Notes: a model not told the origin generated them from the letters alone. Shown: positions 49,706-61,569, numbered from the stretch's first letter. The stretch: 64,000 nt of DNA from an uncultured Candidatus Babeliaceae bacterium (GCA_963704655.1 OY969927.1:864001-928000); one strand, 5' to 3'. Translations and numbers: made by a program.

Positions 49706-49972
49706 AGTACCTAATAGTATAATAAACGGTATTAATTTTGTATATTATAAGATTATTTTGCCCAAGGCGGCACTTTTACCTTGAAAATACCACTTTTAAC
49801 CCATCCAGACGACATTTAACCCCCACCTATTGCTAAAAAAAACAATATTTATGCCAAACTATTGCTATTTTATTAAGGGCTCAGCATAATAACTGGGCAA
49901 ATTTTTTTATGTAGATTCTCCCAAAATAATACGCTAGTCTATTCATACATGTTCACAAACTCAGGGAGAATT

Positions 49973-50473
49973 ATGGATATCTTTAAACAAAAAACATGGT
50001 CGCCTTTTGCCGTAGGCGCGTTAATCGGCACGCTCATGGTGGCATCATTCTATTTTACCGGAAAGTTTTTGGGGATCTCGTCAGCATTTGTTGAAATTGC
50101 TACAATTTTTTCTACGTTGATTTCGCACCAAGCTTTTTCAATGGTAAATTTTTGGCAGGAAAATATCGAACTAGTAACCATAGCCGGTGTTATTATCGGC
50201 GCATTTTTATCAAGCTACTTTTCAGATAACTTTACCAAAGATCTTGTACCAAGTCTTTGGAGTAAAAATTTTGGTAATTCTTTTTCTAAACGCGCTCTTT
50301 TTGCATTTATTGGCGGCGTGATAATAATTTTCGGCGCACGTTTAGCCGGCGGTTGCACATCGGGTAAATCGATCGCATCAGGGCTTCAGCTTATTGTACC
50401 AGCCTGGATATTTACCTGCTGCTTATTTGCAGCTGCAAGCGTTACCGCATTTTTATTGTATCGAAATAAATAG
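49973..50473 (+). CDS. YeeE/YedE family sulfur-compound transporter half
   Basis: FGARLAGGCTSG motif; start placed at MDIFKQ. Confidence 0.88.
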   Translation: MDIFKQKTWSPFAVGALIGTLMVASFYFTGKFLGISSAFVEIATIFSTLISHQAFSMVNFWQENIELVTIAGVIIGAFLSSYFSDNFTKDLVPSLWSKNFGNSFSKRALFAFIGGVIIIFGARLAGGCTSGKSIASGLQLIVPAWIFTCCLFAAASVTAFLLYRNK

Positions 50474-50484
50474 AGAGTAAAAAC

Positions 50485-51012
50485 ATGATGAACATTCTTT
50501 TAGCCTTATTATTTGGGATTATTTTTGGGTTTTTATTACAAAAAGGTAACGTAAGCAACTTTAATGTTATTGTTGGCCAACTACTTTTTAAAAATATTAT
50601 CGTTTTAAATATTATCATGACGGCTATTATTGTTGGCGGCACGTTGATGTACGCATTAGTCGATTTAAACTTTATGAGCGCACTGCCCTTAAAAGCATCA
50701 AGTATGTATGGCTCGGCAATTGGCGGCCTTATTTTTGGCGTGGGCATGGCGGTTTTAGGCTATTGCCCGGGAACAGCGCTTGCTGCAATTGGGCAAGGAT
50801 CGAAAGATGCATTATTTGGCATTCTTGGCATGGCCACCGGCGCATTGTTATTCATTAAATGTAGCGACTTTCTGAAATCTACCATCTTGATCGATACACC
50901 AAACAATACTACTCTGCCGAATCTTTTAGGCGTATCACCCTATCTGATTTTTTTAATACTTGCGCTTGTTACCTTCGGTATAAACATGATATTTAATAAA
51001 ACGCGCGCATAA
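50485..51012 (+). CDS. YeeE/YedE family sulfur-compound transporter half
   Basis: FGFLLQKG, GGLIFGVG...GYCPGT. Confidence 0.88.
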   Translation: MMNILLALLFGIIFGFLLQKGNVSNFNVIVGQLLFKNIIVLNIIMTAIIVGGTLMYALVDLNFMSALPLKASSMYGSAIGGLIFGVGMAVLGYCPGTALAAIGQGSKDALFGILGMATGALLFIKCSDFLKSTILIDTPNNTTLPNLLGVSPYLIFLILALVTFGINMIFNKTRA

Positions 51013-51022
51013 AAAGATTAAC

Positions 51023-51113
51023 TTCTGGGCAATTGGTTGGAAAAATTGTAGACTTTTTCCAACCATAAAACTTTATCTTTAAGGGCCCGCCATGAATCCA
51101 GAAAAATTAAATA
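51023..51113 (+). repeat. Left direct repeat (copy of glyA upstream region and first 7 codons)
   Basis: 51059-51113 identical to 58062-58116 (55 bp); match extends to 51023/58026 at constant offset 7003. Confidence 0.95.
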
Positions 51114-51137
51114 CTTATAAATAATACGCACGCTTTT

Positions 51138-52124
51138 TTAGAAATCACAAAGTGATCTAATATATGGAATACCCAAAATAAAAGTTGCAATGGTAGTCCC
51201 TGCGCTAGCCATAGTGAATAATGATGACACCAAATGCACTTTATCATATATATCTCTTTTAGGGGCATCAGAATCTTTAGCACCTTTATACCCACGAGGA
51301 TACGATTTTATTTTTTTAATAAGTTGTACATCATCCAATGGTGCTTTAAATATAGCAATTAATTTTACCTGGCTTACAAAATCTTCAAGTTCTCGAATAC
51401 TCATGCCATCACTATAATATGCTAAATCATTTATGATATTTTTATCTTGATTTACCTCATATTTTTCAAACAAATTCATTAGGACTTCTTTCCTCATTTC
51501 TTTATTTGGTTGATCAATCTTTAACCGTTGTTGTTCTGGGAACCTACTGACAAATGCAGGGCTCAGTTTTTCGTACCTATTTGTTGCACAAATTATAAAA
51601 TAACGCGGATCATACTTAAATTTATCCAAATAAAGCCACAATTCCTGCATAGCTTTATTGTCTTCAACCCTAGATTCGTCAGAACCAACAATAGCTATTG
51701 CATCGATTTCATCGATAAAAATAACAACAGGTCTTCCACTTCCTGCCATCATTTCAAAAGCCTGACCCATTTCTTTTTTAATATTTTCAGCACCACTGCC
51801 AGCATACTTAGTAACAATTGATGGCGCGTTTATATGAACAAACTCACAATTTGCTACATTTGCTATCTGTCGTGCGAGCGTCGTCTTACCATTTCCTGGA
51901 GGCCCATACAAAAGTAATCTATTAGGAATTATAAGCGGTTTGGTAAAAGCATCTGAATCTACGAAGGTGATATTTTCGATTAACGGAATGCTTAACATTT
52001 TTACAATGTAATAAACTATCTCATGTTGCAAATAGATTGAATTATTTATTTCCCTAATATCTGCGCAACAAAACGTCTGCATAAAAATCGATATTAATAA
52101 CATTATATAAGAAAAAATATGCAT
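51138..52124 (-). CDS. Classical-clade AAA ATPase with N-terminal signal/anchor and C-terminal hydrophobic segment
   Basis: LLLYGPPGNGKT, pore loop TKYAG, IFIDEID, ATNR...SRF. Confidence 0.9.
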   Translation of the reverse strand: MHIFSYIMLLISIFMQTFCCADIREINNSIYLQHEIVYYIVKMLSIPLIENITFVDSDAFTKPLIIPNRLLLYGPPGNGKTTLARQIANVANCEFVHINAPSIVTKYAGSGAENIKKEMGQAFEMMAGSGRPVVIFIDEIDAIAIVGSDESRVEDNKAMQELWLYLDKFKYDPRYFIICATNRYEKLSPAFVSRFPEQQRLKIDQPNKEMRKEVLMNLFEKYEVNQDKNIINDLAYYSDGMSIRELEDFVSQVKLIAIFKAPLDDVQLIKKIKSYPRGYKGAKDSDAPKRDIYDKVHLVSSLFTMASAGTTIATFILGIPYIRSLCDF

Positions 52125-52133
52125 AAAATCCTT

Positions 52134-53153
52134 TTATTTACATCTCCTACATTTACAATAATCTGCAGAGTCCCTAGTTATATAATCATAAGCACCAACA
52201 GCGATCATATTGCCTACTAATCCAGGTAATCCTCCAGAAAACGCTCCGGCAAGAATGAAGACTGTTCTACCTGAATTTTTATTATCGCGAGCTATTGATC
52301 GTTTTTTTTCAATAATTTTTTCTAAAATTTCTTTACGCGTAAGCTTAGAATCGAATATCTGGGTTTTATTGATTTCAGCTATGAGGTTTTCTAAATCACG
52401 AATACTCAATGTATTACTATGGTAGGCTAAACAACTAAACCACTGATCTGCAATATCGGCATCATAATCTTTAGAAAATTTTATCAACATTTTCTCGCGC
52501 ATTGCTTCGCCTGGGTTATCAATATGTATCTTATGATCTTCTTCAAAGCGACTTAGAAAAACACTGTTCAAATCATCGAATCGATTTGTGGTACAGACTA
52601 CAAAAATACGCGGGTCATTTTTAAATTTATCTAAATATTGCCATAATTCTTGCAAAGCTCTTTCATTATCAGATGCTGAATCGCCTTTTCCTGTTATAGC
52701 AATAGCATCAATTTCATCTATTAACATAACGATGGGTCGCCCACTTTCGACAACCTTATCTAAAGCTTTTTTAAATTCTTTTTTAATATTTTCAGAACCA
52801 CTCCCTTGAAATTTCGTAACGATTCCTGGAGCACTAATATGAACAAATTCACAATCAGCAGCATCTGCGATTTCTCTGGCTAATGTTGATTTTCCGTTTC
52901 CAGGGGGCCCATACAAAAGCAATCTATTTGACACAACTAATGGTTTTGTAAAAGATACTGGATCTACCTCTAATATTGATTTTGCTAATGGCCTACTTAA
53001 AGCTTTAATAATATAACTTATTTGTTTAAACTGTGAGCCAACTATCAATTCTGTCTTGACTTTGGAAGCCGTTACCTGTACTGTTTCAGATCGACTATAA
53101 GAAAAAAAATGTGTACACAATAACAAGAAAATCAAACACGCTGAATTTAACAT
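52134..53153 (-). CDS. Classical-clade AAA ATPase with N-terminal signal/anchor and C-terminal hydrophobic segment (paralog)
   Basis: LLLYGPPGNGKS, TKFQG, MLIDEID, TTNR...SRF. Confidence 0.9.
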   Translation of the reverse strand: MLNSACLIFLLLCTHFFSYSRSETVQVTASKVKTELIVGSQFKQISYIIKALSRPLAKSILEVDPVSFTKPLVVSNRLLLYGPPGNGKSTLAREIADAADCEFVHISAPGIVTKFQGSGSENIKKEFKKALDKVVESGRPIVMLIDEIDAIAITGKGDSASDNERALQELWQYLDKFKNDPRIFVVCTTNRFDDLNSVFLSRFEEDHKIHIDNPGEAMREKMLIKFSKDYDADIADQWFSCLAYHSNTLSIRDLENLIAEINKTQIFDSKLTRKEILEKIIEKKRSIARDNKNSGRTVFILAGAFSGGLPGLVGNMIAVGAYDYITRDSADYCKCRRCK

Positions 53154-53250
53154 TATGGCCCATTCTAAATTTGATTCTTAAAAAAATAATAATTAAAAGA
53201 TACAAAAACATTGAAATAAAATCAATTAAGTAAAACAAAAAGATTAATTT

Positions 53251-55734
53251 ATGAAAAAAAATTATCAATTATTTCTATCTCTGATTTTTTTCACACTTTC
53301 TATCACTAATATCCTATCAAGATCTCAATTTAAAACTGCTACAAGTAGCTATGAAACTTACGCTCCTTCAACAGTGTTCACGGCTGGTGCGCTAATTTAT
53401 ACCGCCGCACAAGATTATTTTAAAGCACGTGGCTATTTATTCTCCACAAGCCAAGAAGTACAAGCTCAGATGCTCAAGATGTCGAATCAAGAATGGAAAT
53501 CTTTTGTTGAAACTAGTTTACTTAACGGCAAAAGCATAGAATCATTAACCTTTGCAGAACGACAAAAACTTTTTACAGCATATGAATTATATCAATATGA
53601 TGGCTACAGGCTATTAATGGCATCATTACCAGAATTCAAAAATTTTATATTGGGAAGCACCTACCAGCCAAGTAATGAGCAAAAGAAGTATTATAAAACT
53701 CCCATGCTCTACTCCAAGCAAAACCTTAAACTTATTTCTAGATACTATGATGGGAGGGTTACCCTAACTGGACAAGAAATTAATGACTTGCCTGATACCT
53801 TAAATGGTGAATCAATAGCCACTATTATCGGCAGGCAGGCCCCTAGGACATTTGGTGAATTTATGAATGAAGAAGCGGGTTATAGGACAAATTTACCTGC
53901 CCATTTTGACCCACGTCAACACCCTTTAGGATTATCAGCTGAAAAACAGCAAGAACTTGTTCGTGAGATAAAAAACAACTTTGCTGGCATACAAAATAAT
54001 AATTCTTTATTCGCCCCTCAAGTAGCAACGCAAGCGGATATTAAAGTTTTGCCTGTATTATCGCAAGATACATTACACATGTGCGAAGAAAAAAATATAG
54101 ATATTAACTTATTTTCCGCCACCTATGGAACAGTGGAGCAAAGTATTTTACATCAACAGTTTATTGATATCATTAACAAATCTGCAACAATCTATGTGCG
54201 TTATGAAAATTATAGTGAAGTTAAAAAATTAGCTCTTGGCGCAACACAATATAGTTTGGCAGGTATTTCACTTACCAAATCAAACAATATTCCCTTAGCA
54301 CAAGCTGCTCATAAAGCAGCAAGTTCTATTATTGCGCTCTTAGATGGCGTGCGTGAAGCTTGCGGCGATAAATTAAGCCAAGTTTGTAGTGCAGTAAGAA
54401 ACCCGGTGCAATTTGGGCGAGATATTGCAGATTTAGCACTCAATGCAAGCTCAGAAATTGCTATTTTTACTACGCAAGCACTTAATAACCCTGAAGTTCA
54501 AAAAACTATACTCACGATAATTGCCGATCCGCACCCTAGCTTTGCTATTAACTCAATTATTGCTACTAAAGTATGCAAAGAACTTGATACATACATGAAA
54601 ACACATACTATTGAACAGGCAGCTCATGCACTAGGAAAAGAAGCTACAGATCTCGTTCTTGATGCAATGATTTTTAATGCCGCCGGCAGAGCCGTTAAAA
54701 CTTTAAAAATCACCCAAAAATTAGGGTATGCAGGAAGACAAGCAGCAAAATTAGTCGGCTACTCGGTCATTAATAAAGCTGAAACTATAGAAAAAGCCAC
54801 ATTACTTTTAGCAGAAGCATCTCCAGAAGCTCTATCGGTCAACCCTATCGTACGCGCAGCCGTCGCTTCAGAAATTAAGTGTACACAGGCCATAAAAGAA
54901 ATAGGTTTTAAAACATTACCCAAAACAGTAACCCCTTTAGTTGAAGAATTAATCGCAGGCAATGGCCTTCCCAAATCATTTATTCCAAATACCAATACCT
55001 TAACTCTTGCACTTCAAGAAAATGGTGTTTACGAATTAAGCAAAACTGCAGACATTTTTGGAAATAAGTGGCAAAAAATCACAGCTGCCGGCGAAGAATT
55101 TTGGCAAATAACTCCGGCAAATAGCAAAGGAAGAGAATTCTTATTGCAGACCGAAAAAGAACTTATACAATCACCTGAAGCAATCTTTTCTGTTGAACCA
55201 ATTGTACCAACTCAAAGTCCTGTCTTTATCCCTGCTGTAATAACAGACGCAAACATGGGAATACCTCAAAAGACAGTCCGGATCGCAGAGTGTACTGAGA
55301 TAAAAGATGCACAATATATAACACTTCAAACAGGTGAAAGATGCCGCATCCCCTATCCAGAAAATGGCGTTACGAGGGAAATTGTATGGGGTCCTAAAAA
55401 ATATCAAGAAATTCGAGCTTTAAAAGATGACGTCGAAGTAATTGCACAAAATGTAAATATGCCCGTACATAAAATTCAACGAATTAAAAGTCATCTTTTT
55501 TATGACGACCATATTTTAAGAGATGGTAGCATTCGACCTTTTGACCCAAACTCTGAAATTGCAGCTGCCTGGGACCGTTTATACCGAGGCGACTTTGTTA
55601 AAAATGATATCCAACTATTAGAGCATGAATACTTTGAATCTAGATTTGAACGTTTATTTAAAACAGATTATGATACCGCCCACAAGGCAGCGCAAGATTT
55701 AAAAAGAGGCAGGCCTTGGGAATCTAACAAATAG
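53251..55734 (+). CDS. Secreted polymorphic-toxin-like protein with His/Glu-rich C-terminal domain
   Basis: Signal peptide, long Ala-rich helical trunk, terminal ~110 aa with IKSHLF..DH, FDP, AWDRL, LEHEYFE, AH; followed by small genes. Confidence 0.7.
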   Translation: MKKNYQLFLSLIFFTLSITNILSRSQFKTATSSYETYAPSTVFTAGALIYTAAQDYFKARGYLFSTSQEVQAQMLKMSNQEWKSFVETSLLNGKSIESLTFAERQKLFTAYELYQYDGYRLLMASLPEFKNFILGSTYQPSNEQKKYYKTPMLYSKQNLKLISRYYDGRVTLTGQEINDLPDTLNGESIATIIGRQAPRTFGEFMNEEAGYRTNLPAHFDPRQHPLGLSAEKQQELVREIKNNFAGIQNNNSLFAPQVATQADIKVLPVLSQDTLHMCEEKNIDINLFSATYGTVEQSILHQQFIDIINKSATIYVRYENYSEVKKLALGATQYSLAGISLTKSNNIPLAQAAHKAASSIIALLDGVREACGDKLSQVCSAVRNPVQFGRDIADLALNASSEIAIFTTQALNNPEVQKTILTIIADPHPSFAINSIIATKVCKELDTYMKTHTIEQAAHALGKEATDLVLDAMIFNAAGRAVKTLKITQKLGYAGRQAAKLVGYSVINKAETIEKATLLLAEASPEALSVNPIVRAAVASEIKCTQAIKEIGFKTLPKTVTPLVEELIAGNGLPKSFIPNTNTLTLALQENGVYELSKTADIFGNKWQKITAAGEEFWQITPANSKGREFLLQTEKELIQSPEAIFSVEPIVPTQSPVFIPAVITDANMGIPQKTVRIAECTEIKDAQYITLQTGERCRIPYPENGVTREIVWGPKKYQEIRALKDDVEVIAQNVNMPVHKIQRIKSHLFYDDHILRDGSIRPFDPNSEIAAAWDRLYRGDFVKNDIQLLEHEYFESRFERLFKTDYDTAHKAAQDLKRGRPWESNK

Positions 55735-55742
55735 GGAAAAGC

Positions 55743-56048
55743 ATGTACATTATTATGCATAAATTAAATGAAGATATATTGTATGTTACATACAAAATTG
55801 AAACGGATATTACCGCAGGACAATATATCAATGAACAAGGGAAAGAAAGAACTTCCTTTAAAACAATATTTGCTTATTGTAAGTTGAATAAACAGACTGA
55901 AGAGTTTTTTCTAGATATCAATAAAACTAATCCCTATTTTTTAGAACCGAATTCTCGAGAAATACGGCATGCGATGGCACAATTAATAAAAAGGGTCAGA
56001 GAGAAACAGCCATTTGAACAATCAATACACATTGCAACCGGGGGCTGA
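55743..56048 (+). CDS. Putative cognate immunity protein
   Basis: 101 aa, 8 bp after toxin stop, no signal peptide. Confidence 0.55.
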   Translation: MYIIMHKLNEDILYVTYKIETDITAGQYINEQGKERTSFKTIFAYCKLNKQTEEFFLDINKTNPYFLEPNSREIRHAMAQLIKRVREKQPFEQSIHIATGG

Positions 56049-56063
56049 CAATATCAGTGCAGA

Positions 56064-56437
56064 ATGAATAAAACAGCTATTCCTTTTGAAGAGTTTGAAA
56101 AAGCGGTTATTCGAAAGATTCTTGAGAAGAAGAGTGATGTGAATGAAATATTATGGGAACAATATATGGCATCTCAAGTAATTAAAAGAAATTTTACTGG
56201 AGTTGGGTTTTTTACCGATTTTAAAATACCAAAGGATGTGCCCCATGCTACTGAATTAATCGATCGTAGCTATGAAGATGTGGTAGCAAGTATAAATGGG
56301 TAGCACTTTCGATTTTGGGTTTGTTTTTATTCTTAGAAGATGGCATCATCTCGTGTTTAGAGGGTTATACGTGGGCTGACGCATGGCCAGAAACTATAAA
56401 AAACTATGATCTGAAACATTCCGATAATATTCTTTAG
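56064..56437 (+). pseudogene. Frameshifted immunity-like gene
   Basis: RNFTGVGFFTDF then, after removing one G (~56298-56300) and one T (~56324-56328), FVLFLEDGIISCLEGYTWADAWPE...*. Confidence 0.7.
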
Positions 56438-56511
56438 ACGCTATAAGTTATAGAATAAACAATGCATTTTCTACCCGCAACAAGCATGCTACTTAAAAAA
56501 ATGAAGGAATT

Positions 56512-57124
56512 ATGGAACATATTAAATCTATTTTACGTAATATTGAAAATAACCCAACTGAAGAAAATTCTATCGTATATTTTCCCGTATTGCGTGATTC
56601 AATTAACAATTCTTTAAAAGAGATACAACAATGCGATATATCAGAGCAAGCCGGTAATCAATTTAACCTATTAGAGGATATTGATTTTATTTTAACAAAA
56701 TTAACTTTTAAAGAAGTATCACTTCCAGAAGACTTAAAAAAAATTATTATTGACTTTGATCGCATAAACAGTCAAAAAATGGCGAGAATATTTATTTGAT
56801 AGAATTAAAAGTGAAAATTACTCTTTAAACAGCAAACCCCTACTATTAGATATAATTAATAATTTATTAGCAAAAATTGAATTTTGTGAAAATATTGAAA
56901 CTGCAAATATGTATTTTGATTTACTTCAAGATGCCCAATCGCGTGTATGCATTTTAGCTTTTGTAAAAAAAATAGAGGTATCCACTCAATTTTGGAAGTT
57001 TATTAAAGATTTCGATCGAATAGATGATAATGAATGGCGAGAATACCTATTTAATAAAATTAAAAAACACGAATATTCATTAGATGCGATACCAGCTTTA
57101 GATGAGCGGTTCTATAGCAAATAA
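56512..57124 (+). pseudogene. Frameshifted immunity-like gene with internal duplication
   Basis: Removing one A from A6 at 56774-56779 fuses two ORFs; repeat DFDRINSQKWREYLFDRIK / DFDRIDDNEWREYLFNKIK. Confidence 0.75.
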
Positions 57125-57165
57125 TAAGTATAGAAATTTTTATGTGGCTCTAAAGATAATAAAAC

Positions 57166-57531
57166 ATGGTAATCGTCAAAAAAATAACCCGATGTGGCGA
57201 TGGGTCTTGCCAAGAGGCCGACATTATCATTTCTGATGGGCAATTTGAAATATTGTGTTTTTGCCATCCCTGCTCATTGCAAGAAGGCCAAGAAATAACA
57301 TGGTCTCTTTACCCATTTAATGCAGATAATATTATGCGACCTTTTGAAAAAACTTATAAAGTGGAAAAAATTTTAAATGATTATTTTGCTTATAATTTCA
57401 TTGGTAAATTAATTGATAAAAAAAAGGGTATTGTTATTGTCGGCAAAATTAAATTTATGCTTGGTGGAATTCCACAAGATATTGAAGAATATGAGTTTAT
57501 ATCATTTAGCTGTTGCAGGGTTGATGTATAA
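57166..57531 (+). CDS. Putative orphan immunity protein
   Basis: 121 aa beta-rich, EADIIISDG..LCFCHPC; position in array. Confidence 0.55.
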   Translation: MVIVKKITRCGDGSCQEADIIISDGQFEILCFCHPCSLQEGQEITWSLYPFNADNIMRPFEKTYKVEKILNDYFAYNFIGKLIDKKKGIVIVGKIKFMLGGIPQDIEEYEFISFSCCRVDV

Positions 57532-57554
57532 ACTTTAAAAATCCCGCGGTAAAT

Positions 57555-57899
57555 ATGTCAAATTTTATTTTAAAAAACGATGTACCAATTTTACATTGCT
57601 CAAATTGGGCTTTGGAACTATTTCATGATTCTCTGAAAGCGGTAATCTATGAGCAAGGTTTGGAGAATAACAAAAAACTTATTAATTTTCTAGAAAAAAT
57701 CGATCAAGGTACCTATGGAAGAGGCTGTATTTATATTGAATTGAACGATTATTTTAATGATGATTTAGATAAATTACCCGTGCAGCTTCTTTATGATCTA
57801 ACAACTAAAACAATAGAAAAGATTGAACAACAATATTTTGGCGAATATCGAGAAAATTATTTAGCACTTTTAAATGGATTTAAAGACAAAATCTTATAA
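57555..57899 (+). CDS. Putative orphan immunity protein
   Basis: 114 aa acidic helical protein; position in array. Confidence 0.5.
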   Translation: MSNFILKNDVPILHCSNWALELFHDSLKAVIYEQGLENNKKLINFLEKIDQGTYGRGCIYIELNDYFNDDLDKLPVQLLYDLTTKTIEKIEQQYFGEYRENYLALLNGFKDKIL

Positions 57900-57943
57900 C
57901 ATCAAAGTGAACTTTTTTAACTTAAATATTGCTTTAAATTCCC

Positions 57944-57971
57944 AACACTTCGACTTCGCTCAGTGTGAGCG
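57944..57971. repeat. TTCGAC-N3-GCTCA palindromic repeat
   Basis: aacacttcgacttcgctcagtgtgagcg. Confidence 0.88.
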
Positions 57972-58025
57972 ACGGCTGATGCCCCGTCCAGAAATTAAGA
58001 CATTTTTTCCCTTATAACCATTCTT

Positions 58026-58116
58026 TTCTGGGCAATTAAAATATAAAATTGTACACTTTACCCAACCATAAAACTTTATCTTTAAGGGCCCGCCATGAAT
58101 CCAGAAAAATTAAATA
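58026..58116 (+). repeat. Right direct repeat (actual glyA start)
   Basis: Counterpart of 51023-51113. Confidence 0.95.
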
Positions 58117-59333
58117 TCGTTGATCCGGAAATTTTTTCGATCATTCAAAAAGAAGAAAATCGCCAACAGCATGAAATTGATCTTATAGCCTCAGAAAATT
58201 ATGCATCACAGGCTGTGCGCGAAGCAACCGGATCAGTTTTAACTAATAAATATGCAGAAGGTTATCCAGGAAAAAGATATTACGGCGGATGCGAATTTGT
58301 CGATATGGCAGAAAATCTTGCCATAGAGCGTTGTAAAAAAATATTCGGTGCCGATCATGTCAATGTGCAACCGCACGCAGGTTCACAGGCAAACATGAGC
58401 GCATACGCAGCACTTTTGCAACCGGGCGATACTATTTTAGGCATGGCACTTGCAGCTGGCGGCCACTTAACGCATGGACACGGCGTAAATTTTTCTGGTG
58501 GATTATATAAAGCGATACAATATGGCGTTAACGCAGAAACTGGGTTATTAGATTACGCTGAAATTGAAAAACTTGCCCACGAACATAAACCTAAATTGAT
58601 TATTGCAGGCGCTTCGGCGTATTCAAGAACTATCGATTTTGAACGCTTTGCTGATATTGCACAATCTGTCGGCGCATATTTTATGGCAGACATTGCCCAT
58701 ATTGCGGGCCTTGTAGCGGCCGGTTTACACCCAAGCCCAATTCCGTATGCTGATATTGTCACCAGCACAACGCATAAAACATTACGTGGCCCACGCGGTG
58801 GACTTATTATGTGCAAAGCACAACACGCATCTGCTGTTGACCGCTCTATTATGCCGGGCTTACAAGGCGGCCCTTTTATGAATAGCATTGCAGCAAAAGC
58901 GGTTGCATTTCATGAAGCACTACAGCCAGATTTTATTCATTATCAAAAACAAATTATAAAAAATGCGCACGCTATGGTAAAAGCAGCTTTAGAAAATGGC
59001 TTTGATATTGTTACCGGCGGCACAGATAACCATATGTTTATTATCGATTTACGTTCAAAAAAAGTTAACGGCCGTGTCGCAGAAGCTGCACTTGCTGCTG
59101 CGGGAATTTCTGTCAGCAGAAGTTGCATTCCAAATGATCCAGAAAAACCATGGATCACCAGCGGCATCCGCATCGGCACACCGGCAATTACCACACGCGG
59201 CATGCTTGAACTGCAGGCACATGAAATCATGAACCTTACGCACGAAGCTATAATTAATGCGCTTGTTCCTGAAAAATTAGCAGAAATAAAAAAACTGGTA
59301 CAAGAACTTTGTATACAATTTCCATTACAGTAG
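58095..59333 (+). CDS. glyA: Serine hydroxymethyltransferase
   Basis: [41 protein letters not shown]. Confidence 0.98.
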
Positions 59334-59408: not shown

Positions 59409-60380
59409 ATGAATAAACTTACTACGAGTGTTATTATCTGCACGCGTAATAGATTACAGGATGTGCTCACTTTTTTGCCGACATTAATTACGCAAACAGA
59501 ACCTGCAACTGAACTCATTTTTGTTGATAGCAGCACCGAGCCACTAGAAAATATTGCTGAATTTAAAGCGTTATTTAATACCCAAAATTTTCCGCACACA
59601 CATTTAGTCTACTTGCATACGCAACCGGGACTCACGTTTCAACGCAATTGTGGCATCGAAAAAGCAAAAGGGGATATTATCTTCTTTTTTGATGACGATG
59701 TAACACTCGATAATAATTATCTTGAAACCATGCGTAAAACGTATGAAAATAATCCAGATTATGCTGGCGGCATGGGGACAGTAACAAATCTTAAAGCTTA
59801 TAGTTTTAATCTCTATCGTATATTTAGGCTTCTCTTTTTACTTGATCGCAATGATTCATCAGGAAACTTCACCATTTCTGGTATGCCCACACATACGTAT
59901 GGCAATAGTAATTTTTCTCATGTTCAAGTTCTTGGCGGCTGTTGTATGAGCTTCAGATCTTGGGCATTACAACAACAAAAATTTGATGAAAAGCTGAGAT
60001 TTTATGGCTACATGGAAGACTGTGATATCTCAAAACGACTTTCGGATACTTACCCATTATTTTTTCAGCCTGCGGCTAAACTTGCGCATCATGAAAGCTC
60101 GCTTAATAGAGATAAATTAAAAAATAACCGTGCTATGTTTATCGCAAATTATAGTTATCTTTTTTTTAAAAATTTCTATCCTCAAGCTCGCTGGAAGATT
60201 CTTTTTTATTATTGGACGGTGCTTGGTCTTCTTCTTGAAGGAATACTGCGGATTGATAGAGAGGTATTTTTTGGTTATCTGTGGGGACTAAAGCATGTGT
60301 TACGCACGCGCGCAAAACAGCCTTATTGCCCAAATATATCAGTACAAAATAGACCGCATACGCCACAGCATAGCTCGTAA
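59409..60380 (+). CDS. Glycosyltransferase family 2
   Basis: SVIICTRNR, RNCGI, FFDDD, GCCMSFR, FDE...MEDCD. Confidence 0.92.
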   Translation: MNKLTTSVIICTRNRLQDVLTFLPTLITQTEPATELIFVDSSTEPLENIAEFKALFNTQNFPHTHLVYLHTQPGLTFQRNCGIEKAKGDIIFFFDDDVTLDNNYLETMRKTYENNPDYAGGMGTVTNLKAYSFNLYRIFRLLFLLDRNDSSGNFTISGMPTHTYGNSNFSHVQVLGGCCMSFRSWALQQQKFDEKLRFYGYMEDCDISKRLSDTYPLFFQPAAKLAHHESSLNRDKLKNNRAMFIANYSYLFFKNFYPQARWKILFYYWTVLGLLLEGILRIDREVFFGYLWGLKHVLRTRAKQPYCPNISVQNRPHTPQHSS

Positions 60381-61569
60381 AACAGCCGTAAATTCCATAA
60401 ATCGGAACAAGCGCAGAAGAAAGAGCTATATTTGTAAGTGCTGCTGCAACCATAGTAACTAAGAGATAATAGCTTTTTTTCTTAAATAAAATTATCGATG
60501 ACGTAAAATAAGTCCCCATCAAAAAAATATTTGCGATAAATACAACAAATGCACCGGGAATAGCGGCATAATAAATTTGTGGTAAAAAATAGAAAGCCAG
60601 TGGCCTTAACACTATATATCCAATAGAACCTGCAACAAAAAGTGCCGCCATACTCAGCCACATCAACCGTTTATTTCCAGACTCTGTGGTTTCTACGGTA
60701 TCTGTATTTTGATTAAATGCTGTCATGATTCTGGGCAAATAGGCACCGCTTAATGGATATAAAATAAGTAGATTAAAAAGTGGCGAAACATACTCTGCAA
60801 AAGAATATACGGCAATATCAGCAAGATCCGCATGCCATGCTAACACCCATCTATTACCTGATGCCAAGAGTAACCCCGCAATAACTGTGGGCATTAACGG
60901 CGCACCTTTTGACAATAAGCTGCCACTGTTTTTTACTCCACGCTGCAGATTAAAATATTCAAACAATTTCTTTGAATAATAAAGTTTTCCCGCATAACAA
61001 ACTATAACAAAATAGCTTATTAATTGGGCCAACATAACGAGTTCTATGCCAGCATTAAAAACATAAACCGCTATAACAGACACCACAAAAATAAAGATGG
61101 CAGAAACTGATTTTATTAAAGTTACATGCACGCTGCGTAATGTATACATAAGTGCCTGAAAAAAAAGCTCGGTAAAAAAGGTTAAAAAAGTAAGAACCAT
61201 AACACAGCAATAGATAAGCGGTGTGGCGCGCCCGGCAAAAAGATAGCTATTCAATAGCTTGAAACCAAACAGCGCGAATATAAAAAAAAACGCACTGAAT
61301 ACTAAATAGACAACAATGCTATCATTTACAAATTCTTTTCTCTCTCTTGAACAGAGATTAAAAAATTCGATCATAAAAAGTTGTCGCAACCCAAACGAGA
61401 TAACCGTTGATAATAAGAGTATTGTTGAAAATGATAAGCTTAAAAGCCCAACTTCCTGTGCAGGCATATGGTACATCAAAAACAGCATGAGGCCGATATT
61501 ACTCAGCTGTGCCAGCACTGAACCAAGACTATAGACCAAAAAATCTTTAATAAACTCGCGTGATATCAT
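60166..61569 (-). CDS. wzx: Polysaccharide flippase (Wzx/MOP family)
   Basis: About 12-14 TM segments; adjacent to glycosyltransferases. Confidence 0.8.
   Translation of the reverse strand: MISREFIKDFLVYSLGSVLAQLSNIGLMLFLMYHMPAQEVGLLSLSFSTILLLSTVISFGLRQLFMIEFFNLCSRERKEFVNDSIVVYLVFSAFFFIFALFGFKLLNSYLFAGRATPLIYCCVMVLTFLTFFTELFFQALMYTLRSVHVTLIKSVSAIFIFVVSVIAVYVFNAGIELVMLAQLISYFVIVCYAGKLYYSKKLFEYFNLQRGVKNSGSLLSKGAPLMPTVIAGLLLASGNRWVLAWHADLADIAVYSFAEYVSPLFNLLILYPLSGAYLPRIMTAFNQNTDTVETTESGNKRLMWLSMAALFVAGSIGYIVLRPLAFYFLPQIYYAAIPGAFVVFIANIFLMGTYFTSSIILFKKKSYYLLVTMVAAALTNIALSSALVPIYGIYGCFTSYAVAYAVYFVLIYLGNKAVLRACVTHALVPTDNQKIPLYQSAVFLQEEDQAPSNNKKESSSELEDRNF

Follow-up and report, generated by a model that had tools for sequence, protein, structure and literature searches.

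A candidate Sec-dependent polymorphic toxin locus with AAA ATPase neighbours in an islet at glyA of a Candidatus Babeliaceae bacterium

The polymorphic toxin system that offers the closest described concept for the locus considered here is that of MafB, MafA and MafI in Neisseria, which the relevant passages of Zhang et al. (2012, PMC3482391) place in a class defined by a signal peptide plus a lineage-specific N-terminal domain. In this MafB/MafA type, as far as those passages describe it, a signal-peptide toxin goes together with a conserved exported accessory protein, and the likeness to our locus would be one of analogy. The same source also mentions AAA+ motors in delivery machines, namely ClpV of type VI secretion and the Cdc48-like ATPase of PVC/eCIS particles, and states that intracellular pathogens mostly lack immunity genes. 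For bacteria of the phylum to which our organism belongs (Dependentiae/Babelota), the pertinent parts of the account of Babela massiliensis (PMC4378268) report a Sec pathway and a type II system only, and describe AAA proteins with signal peptides that form a family in which a permuted Ulp1-like peptidase is fused to the ATPase. Here we analyse positions 51023-58116 of a 64,000-nucleotide stretch of DNA (hereafter the window) from an uncultured Candidatus Babeliaceae bacterium (GCA_963704655.1 OY969927.1:864001-928000), an interval in which two genes for AAA ATPases stand beside, and divergent from, the gene for a protein of 827 amino acids (aa) with a signal-like N-terminus and a distinct C-terminal domain, which is followed by a series of small genes, all of them enclosed between two copies of the 5' end of glyA.

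Taken as a whole, the interval reads as a Sec-dependent polymorphic toxin locus, carrying ATPases as accessories of its trunk family, on an islet that would have been inserted in glyA, and to this reading we assign a probability of roughly 0.6. Judged by its genes, the islet is a real and apparently intact toxin/immunity locus, in which three small open reading frames (ORFs) seem to have decayed. On this reading the 827-aa protein would be exported via its signal peptide, and would bear, behind a lineage-specific trunk, a helical toxin domain of ~140 aa with a conserved His/Glu/Asp cluster, over which the 101-aa product of the next gene would bind, so protecting the producer. The other small genes would be immunity genes, some of them decayed, for other tips borne by the same trunk family in relatives, and would record either past tip replacement or defence against the toxins of neighbours. 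The ATPases, being of the classical unfoldase type, would act as a motor most likely outside the cytoplasm, where they may unfold the toxin once Sec has exported it, or release or move it, and the whole unit would have entered 22 nucleotides (nt) into glyA, bringing with it a replacement 5' end.

Toxin trunk, toxin domain and immunity partner

The 827-aa ORF (53251-55734, + strand) has at its N-terminus a signal-like sequence of classical form; throughout, crude hydrophobicity was the measure by which signal peptides and membrane segments were judged. Neither Pfam nor NCBIfam holds a family matching the protein at E <= 0.1, and by Pfam there is no Rhs, CdiA, LXG, VgrG, PAAR or MafB domain in it, as the original prediction had also maintained of the trunk. 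The PT-TG pre-toxin domain is absent from aa 561-720 and from the homologs tested, a paralog within the genome itself was not found, and a language-model lead from the protein to a MafB cluster (0.86) fell below the level of trust. When 5.8 billion proteins were searched with the 827-aa query, eight matched; one of these (P0001, 744 aa) spans 77% of the query at 49% identity and has an unrelated C-terminus, and in the remaining seven the similarity is confined to the final 14-20% of the query, their N-terminal portions being unrelated. Within the phylum the query matched 41 of 261 genomes, mostly through residues 716-815 alone, in proteins of 600-1450 aa, the other matches being weak and lying in a mid-region of about aa 270-520.

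Comparison with relatives separates a conserved trunk from C-termini that change. The trunk ortholog (P0001, contig 21 of genome G003) is 48-49% identical to the protein of the window over aa 1-610 and ends differently. In genome G203 two trunk paralogs (L070 and L080, on contigs 42 and 76) share 80.5% identity over 626 aa and then run out into unrelated ends of ~150-190 aa, which on the sequences is a textbook case of toxin tip replacement. A conserved trunk with unrelated C-termini is accordingly found twice, once between the window and G003/P0001 and once between the G203 paralogs. The 20 trunk-like ORFs from relatives all have signal-like N-termini, the mid-region of about aa 270-520 is common among them, and their C-termini are patchily shared or unrelated. 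The trunk, as far as these comparisons go, appears to be a new family specific to this phylum.

The C-terminal domain was searched with HMMER against 1.84 billion representative sequences, in which it matched 1250, 434 and 25 clusters at E <= 1e-3, 1e-10 and 1e-30, respectively, nearly always at the extreme C-terminus of proteins ranging from about 100 to 5865 aa. Ten long carriers were scanned for further domains, three of them showing RHS repeats, one a VgrG hub domain, one LysM and five nothing, and three of 18 carriers, these three from Paenibacillus, are annotated as WXG100 targets of type VII secretion. The 80 loci with this domain that were retained, from a scan of one genome per species, come from Bacillota, Cyanobacteria, Pseudomonadota, Myxococcota, Acidobacteriota and others, the same domain being found on unrelated carriers that belong to different secretion types. 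A report of 2026 (PMC13483458) presents 24 new toxin families on WXG-type carriers, and the Paenibacillus carriers of our domain have an N-terminal region of ~250 aa such as the relevant passages of that report describe; the toxin domain may be one of these 24 families.

An alignment of 39 members (residues in domain numbering) shows D58, I62, K77, H79, W105, H123 and E124 to be invariant and H85, D98, R107, E127, E131 and H142 to be nearly so, and the domain of the window retains all the invariant residues. With this alignment AlphaFold returned a confident helical model (predicted local distance difference test, pLDDT, 86.1; predicted template modelling score, pTM, 0.78), which was used in place of an unusable single-sequence prediction (pLDDT 49.6). 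From the conserved His/Glu/Asp cluster we would guess at a metal-dependent hydrolase whose target lies in the cytoplasm. The SAMHD1 rows of the fold search were discounted, their TM scores being about 0.16, and the matches of a profile search against solved structures, which were TPR artefacts caused by repeats and one goose-type lysozyme (E 0.24), were rejected. Weak helix-turn-helix matches among the homologs are a lead only; the neighbours of the domain in a protein atlas are unnamed clusters, together with one (score 0.88) in which 37% of the members have a pyocin S domain.

The gene that follows the toxin is linked to this domain by both position and family. Its 101-aa ORF starts 8 nt past the toxin stop codon, and elsewhere in the phylum an ORF of 93-114 aa starts no more than 19 nt downstream of the toxin domain in 17 of 22 ORFs; of the remaining five, one has its partner 322 nt off, one is cut by the end of the locus and three are without. 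Eighteen of the downstream ORFs align with the 101-aa protein of the window as one family, whose members were taken from the loci, a word-based homolog search with the 101-aa protein having found only itself. In other phyla a hidden Markov model (HMM) of the immunity family matches the next downstream ORF in 52 of 79 cases, and in most of the non-matching cases there is an unmatched downstream ORF of similar size. What the downstream immunity gene tracks, then, is the toxin domain and not the trunk.

A complex of the toxin domain with the 101-aa protein was predicted with a median score of 0.82, the best of three controls reaching 0.00. A mark of 0.82 is attained by 58 of 80 solved complexes and by two of 110 mismatched pairs, counts that hold roughly, since our own alignments were supplied. 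At least 68% of the contacts are common to the runs, with a pLDDT of at least 89 for the partner, and the predicted interface includes H85, F95-D98, H123, E124, E127 and H142 (domain numbering), which fits an immunity protein that would block the active site. In genome G005, of the same genus, a 120-aa ORF (L169:11309-11671) matches the immunity family (E 1.7e-11) with no recognisable toxin domain upstream, and may be an orphan of that family; about 2 kb from it stands a single AAA gene, which shares 52% identity with ATPase B of the window.

By architecture the 827-aa protein is, on this sequence evidence, a polymorphic toxin, its toxicity being inferred, and the predicted combination of a conserved trunk, a swappable C-terminal domain, a cognate downstream gene and orphan immunity-like genes was recovered in full. 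One question then is at whom such a toxin would be aimed. It may be directed at the eukaryotic host, with the downstream protein merely protecting the producer before export, an alternative that we regard as somewhat unlikely and that draws on the nature of the genome, which measures 1.3 Mb, encodes two TLC nucleotide transporters and, in the features tested, resembles that of an energy-parasitic intracellular bacterium of the obligate kind. Likewise, the pertinent passages of Zhang et al. (2012, PMC3482391) present polymorphic-toxin-like effectors of amoeba symbionts as used on the host. However, in those same passages the host-directed sets of intracellular bacteria mostly lack immunity genes, whereas here a cognate gene is accompanied by orphans, and the occurrence of the same toxin domain and immunity family on RHS, VgrG and WXG100 carriers in free-living bacteria is the pattern of bacterium against bacterium, although host and bacterial targets are not mutually exclusive. 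The retention of toxin-immunity pairs and orphans in a bacterium of obligate intracellular type suggests conflict between bacteria inside host cells.

AAA ATPases beside the trunk family

The two ATPases of the islet are mutually 47.5-49% identical, and ATPase A has 68% identity with one of the genes adjoining the trunk ortholog in G003, the A/B duplication being older than the split from that genome. Among solved structures they come closest to the D2 domains of VAT, Cdc48 and p97 (E about 1e-35), and they possess the Walker A and Walker B motifs, the pore-loop aromatic residue, the sensor-1 N and one arginine finger of classical AAA proteins, this single arginine (SRF) standing where many AAA proteins have two. 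Over the family, crude hydropathy shows a hydrophobic N-terminus in 38 of 40 members and a hydrophobic C-terminal segment in 22 of 40. Within the islet, to which the search was confined, there are no phage-tail-like sheath, tube or baseplate genes, and the islet does not present the setting of a contractile-injection ATPase such as ClpV or the AAA protein of PVC/eCIS.

The association of such ATPases with the trunk was followed from both sides. In 21 trunk-like loci, each taken with about 8 kb of flank on either side, an AAA ORF directly adjoins the trunk-like ORF in seven (L031, L069, L081, L082, L084, L086 and L087) and lies about 2 kb away in another (L073); the AAA-adjacent trunk loci span families f1, f8, f19 and f21 and include divergent as well as co-directional layouts. 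In G003 three AAA genes, one of them without Walker A, stand divergently beside the trunk ortholog. Viewed from the side of the ATPases, the AAA family occurs at E <= 1e-22 in 35 of the 261 genomes, and six of 14 widely fetched AAA loci directly adjoin a signal-like ORF of 650 aa or more, behind which small ORFs usually come; of the other wide loci, one has a single small ORF between, one is 4 kb off, and one has a signal-like ORF of 587 aa two small ORFs away. Two of these large neighbours end in matches to EndoU nuclease that remain below the cut-off of 25.3 bits, one in G019 (L176:10731-13934; E 3.9e-4, 21.2 bits) and one in G093 (L171:5069-7933; E 0.0064, 17.3 bits).

As baselines, the genome of the window gives about 1.5% for adjacency to an AAA gene and about 6% for adjacency to a large signal-like ORF, against which a rough binomial estimate gives 1.5e-8 for the trunk-based and 1e-4 for the AAA-based count; trunk or toxin matches and AAA matches also co-occur in 13 genomes where 5.5 would be expected (Fisher 7e-4), all these figures being overstated, since the relatives are not independent. 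The linkage between ATPase and trunk is real and recurrent, and it is not obligatory. Because both the layouts and the toxin tips vary, it would appear to be actively kept, and the adjacency foreseen in the original prediction, with variable C-termini and variable downstream genes, recurs in several families of the phylum.

The role of the ATPases in handling the toxin we infer. If the hydrophobic N-terminus is a signal peptide, the motor would be situated outside the cytoplasm, a place where it would ordinarily serve no purpose; since the genome encodes TLC nucleotide transporters, however, host ATP must reach the periplasm. Two secretins are encoded in the genome as well. ATP-driven motors outside the bacterial cytoplasm would be unusual, and plausible here only since the cell lives on host ATP. 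In Plasmodium, HSP101 of the PTEX translocon is exported by a signal peptide and acts outside the parasite cytoplasm on host-derived ATP. An extracytoplasmic AAA ring, released or fixed in the inner membrane and driven by host ATP, might likewise unfold polymorphic toxins, or pull them across the outer barrier, or strip them of immunity proteins; so specific a mechanism is distinctly unlikely on present evidence and, if true, would constitute a bacterial counterpart of the exported malaria translocon motor and a previously unknown route of export or activation.

A number of results weigh against the reading of the islet as a Sec-dependent toxin locus with ATPase accessories inserted in glyA. 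The most direct concern the linkage, as in 13 of the 21 trunk-like loci the flanks of about 8 kb are free of AAA genes, and all four widely fetched loci that carry the toxin domain only (two in G120, one each in G121 and G012) have none within about 6 kb, so that of the predicted travelling of the ATPases with the toxin the frequent adjacency stands and an obligatory one does not. The trunk HMM, similarly, matched in none of 28 AAA loci, for which only 1.5-kb flanks were available, and five of the 14 wide AAA loci have no large neighbour. The tree leads us to reject a single ancient A/B pair, most of the pairs being lineage-specific tandem duplicates of local origin. The export signals shared by toxin and ATPases are weak evidence, since 761 of the 1350 ORFs of the genome (56%) have a hydrophobic N-terminus by the crude hydropathy measure, a share that itself agrees with an energy-parasitic intracellular way of life. 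As to the toxin domain, its model found no fold relative (Foldseek, best E 0.64; VIA-align against 48,161 chains, best Z 3.5), there is no Pfam model for it and no family appears in more than two of the 39 homologs, and because of this lack of a solved relative and of a Pfam model its activity is only a guess. As to the insertion, Pfam and NCBIfam scans revealed no integrase or recombinase among the islet ORFs, and an empty site could not be demonstrated in the congener, where synteny differs and is uninformative.

The results on the ATPases bear equally on the alternative that the toxin/immunity reading is right and that the ATPases are separate, host-directed secreted effectors, which would occupy the same variable islands and have no part in toxin handling. 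The relevant passages on Babela massiliensis (PMC4378268) read its signal-peptide AAA proteins as secreted into the amoeba, which further tells against an accessory role; most AAA paralogs, in both the narrow and the wide loci, do not lie beside trunk-like genes, the majority of trunk-like loci are without AAA, and pairs that arise by repeated local duplication resemble those of expanding effector families. However, direct adjacency in seven of 21 and six of 14 loci is far above the respective baselines, it extends over four families and both gene orders, and it is retained through changes of toxin tip and immunity genes; moreover, 10 longer AAA relatives showed neither a Ulp1/C48 peptidase nor another effector domain. 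We consider this alternative rather unlikely, and retain the ATPases as probable accessories of the trunk family.

The islet at glyA and its other genes

The features of the islet are collected in Table 1. Every element of the inventory originally proposed was found at its position in the ORF list, except that the small genes, counted as five, are in fact six ORFs of 71 aa or more (101, 79, 95, 71, 121 and 114 aa).

Table 1. Coordinates of the features of the islet and of glyA, in positions of the window
Feature	Position	Strand	Basis or remark
Left direct repeat	51023..51113	.	copy of glyA upstream region and first 22 nt of glyA
AAA ATPase A, 328 aa	51138..52124	-	PF00004, E 3.7e-31; hydrophobic signal-like N-terminus, one AAA domain, hydrophobic C-terminal segment
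AAA ATPase B, 339 aa	52134..53153	-	PF00004, E 3.4e-30; layout as A, basic tail after C-terminal hydrophobic segment
Divergent intergenic gap, ATPase B / toxin gene	53154..53250	.	97 bp
Putative toxin gene, signal peptide and lineage-specific trunk (aa 1-682)	53251..55296	+	no Pfam/NCBIfam match; ortholog in G003
Putative C-terminal toxin domain (aa 683-827)	55297..55734	+	conserved core aa 716-815 = 55396-55695
Cognate immunity-like gene, 101 aa	55743..56048	+	family linkage and predicted complex
Frameshifted small gene	56064..56434	+	79-aa ORF 56064-56303; presumed continuation 56276-56434 in other frame (three-frame translation)
Two decayed tandem copies of one ~145-aa family	56512..57124	+	95-aa ORF 56512-56799; 71-aa ORF 56909-57124
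Orphan immunity-like gene, 121 aa	57166..57531	+	match in Lysinibacillus toxin/immunity island
Orphan immunity-like gene, 114 aa	57555..57899	+	homologs in relatives
Right direct repeat	58026..58116	.	genuine glyA upstream region and start codon
glyA	58095-59333	+	ORF list

The two copies of the glyA 5' end are spaced by 7003 bp. The core of the repeat (51042-51113 and 58045-58116) comprises 72 nt at 96% identity and is extended leftward by a weaker stretch to about 51023/58026, giving about 90 nt in all, and identity breaks off sharply past the first 22 nt of glyA; in the 1.298-Mb genome, which is a single contig, these are the only two copies. In windows of 500 nt the GC content of the islet is low, at 0.26-0.39, compared with 0.38-0.43 in the flanking genes, and this low GC together with direct repeats that duplicate the end of the target, 22 nt of glyA included, is what a mobile islet would display. 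Metagenome contigs of low depth, drawn from three studies, match the islet at scattered places with no sequence differences, one of them spanning the left junction and none skipping the islet, and because identical fragments are found in the contigs of three studies the islet sequence is not an oddity of assembly. No tRNA or known RNA family was found in the islet, scans of it for promoters and terminators gave nothing above chance, and promoter-like matches in the 97-bp gap are no commoner than in shuffled sequence. A short GC-rich stretch at 57940-57990, within the AT-rich spacer from the last small ORF to the right repeat, matched no RNA family or tRNA either.

The small genes beyond the 101-aa ORF differ in their state of preservation. 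The 79-aa ORF, for which no family or relatives were found (Pfam, NCBIfam, homolog search), is presumed, from a C-terminal motif, to form one broken gene with 56276-56434. The 95-aa ORF is frameshifted near its end and the 71-aa ORF is truncated N-terminally, as frame analysis shows, and an internal repeat (D3) was detected across the region of both. A 145-aa ORF after the 899-aa trunk-like gene of congener G002 shares 48% identity with the 71-aa copy and 25% with the 95-aa copy, and G005 also has a match to this ~145-aa family (53%).

The 121-aa ORF is 43% identical, over 107 aa, to an ORF right behind a 402-aa protein in a Lysinibacillus island (L143; Lysinibacillus sp., NZ_JBNNLZ010000003.1). 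This island itself contains two orphan copies of the toxin domain of the window with their immunity genes and, in addition, what appears to be a fragment of a deaminase-type toxin.

The 114-aa ORF has homologs elsewhere in the phylum, in 10 genomes, so that with its own genome it is represented in 11 of 261. In seven of these 10 loci a shared C-terminal domain, unlike that of the window, is found on the ORF immediately upstream of the homolog; the trunk HMM matches two of those upstream ORFs, one in a congener (3.9e-29) and one in another genome (5.5e-4), and an AAA gene is next door in two of the 10. A second tip family on trunk-like proteins, with a conserved 'EFID ... WDVKT' (L184-L193, in G001, G149, G150, G230, G110, G190 and G186), always has a homolog of the 114-aa ORF of the window behind it; the motif presumably resembles a (D/E)xK site of the restriction-endonuclease type.

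Downstream of the cognate pair there are, thus, ORFs of 114, 121 and 95/71 aa that match genes behind other toxins, as orphan immunity genes would, whereas a search of the islet for orphan fragments of toxins found none. The proposed immunity array holds to the extent that four small ORFs have such matches, but half of the array, three of the six small ORFs, is decayed. That the islet should be a decaying and non-working remnant, its toxin and ATPase frames open by chance or only recently inactivated, is very improbable, for although three small ORFs are frameshifted or truncated and the third AAA copy of G003 lacks Walker A, the reading frames are unbroken for the 827-aa protein, for the two ATPases and for the genes of 101, 121 and 114 aa, the invariant residues of the toxin domain and the ATPase motifs are all kept, and identical islet fragments recur among the metagenome contigs.

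Some features of the surroundings may be recorded in their own right. Immediately upstream of the islet lie two adjacent half-size membrane ORFs (49949-50473 and 50485-51012; 174 and 175 aa), a pair that is kept in congener G003, there without an adjacent glyA. Beyond glyA, a glycosyltransferase-like ORF (59409-60380, + strand) and a multi-pass membrane ORF (60166-61569, - strand) converge with a 3' overlap of ~215 nt, which is unusually long for convergent genes. At 839000-853000 of the same contig, about 11-25 kb before the start of the window, several small ORFs cluster with one of 489 aa that is serine-recombinase-like, and the cluster resembles a mobile element, for which no link to the islet was established. 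In the set of loci, L007 (G190 contig 90) and L090 (CAZPZX010000090.1) are apparently the same 1904-nt contig, which bears the public label 'uncultured Pseudomonadota', in our view one given by the submitter, and is assigned by the genome set to the phylum of the window.

Comparison with known systems

The originally proposed novelty of the system applies to its parts unequally. The toxin/immunity pair belongs to a widespread family across bacterial phyla, possibly among those of PMC13483458, whereas the literature searches made on Dependentiae/Babelota toxins and AAA proteins brought up no description of AAA accessories and no paper that connects Sec-dependent polymorphic toxins with AAA ATPases. 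Together with its immunity partner the toxin domain makes up a large family, extending from Bacillota to Cyanobacteria, that is without a Pfam model or solved fold and ready for biochemistry. By what route the many signal-peptide proteins of this phylum reach their targets is a related question, for which exported unfoldase-type ATPases that travel with toxins would be a testable candidate.

In its C-terminal part the locus resembles the WXG100/LXG toxins of type VII secretion and the Rhs and VgrG toxins of type VI, which have the same toxin domain at 40-57% identity and, directly downstream, a gene of the same immunity family, of ~80-100 aa. These carriers are found in Paenibacillus, Lysinibacillus, Bacillus, Listeria, Xenorhabdus, Nostoc and others; unlike in the islet, their delivery module is wholly different, and those scanned have no AAA partner of this form.

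With ClpV, the PVC/eCIS ATPase and HSP101 the ATPases of the islet would share an unfoldase-type AAA(+) character and a role in effector delivery, a ring, a channel and translocation being hypothetical here. They differ in being single-domain classical AAA proteins and not of the ClpB type, and, unlike in the case of ClpV and the PVC/eCIS ATPases, no phage-tail genes accompany them in the islet. The AAA family of Babela massiliensis, as the relevant passages of PMC4378268 present it, is similar in its atypical signal peptides, in being an expanded family and in being encoded beside a second conserved family; in contrast, the ATPases of the window, at 328-339 aa, have no room for a peptidase domain, and toxin/immunity neighbours are not mentioned in those passages.

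The likeness to the MafB islands, as far as the pertinent passages of Zhang et al. (2012, PMC3482391) describe them, extends over the whole layout: a Sec signal peptide, a lineage-restricted trunk, polymorphic C-terminal domains, an immunity gene directly downstream with orphans behind it, and, upstream, a conserved, non-polymorphic exported accessory. Unlike MafB, the 827-aa protein has no match to MafB-N/DUF1020 by Pfam, and unlike Neisseria the host is an intracellular-type bacterium with a reduced genome, in which the position of the lipoprotein accessory of the Maf islands is occupied by one to three classical AAA ATPases.

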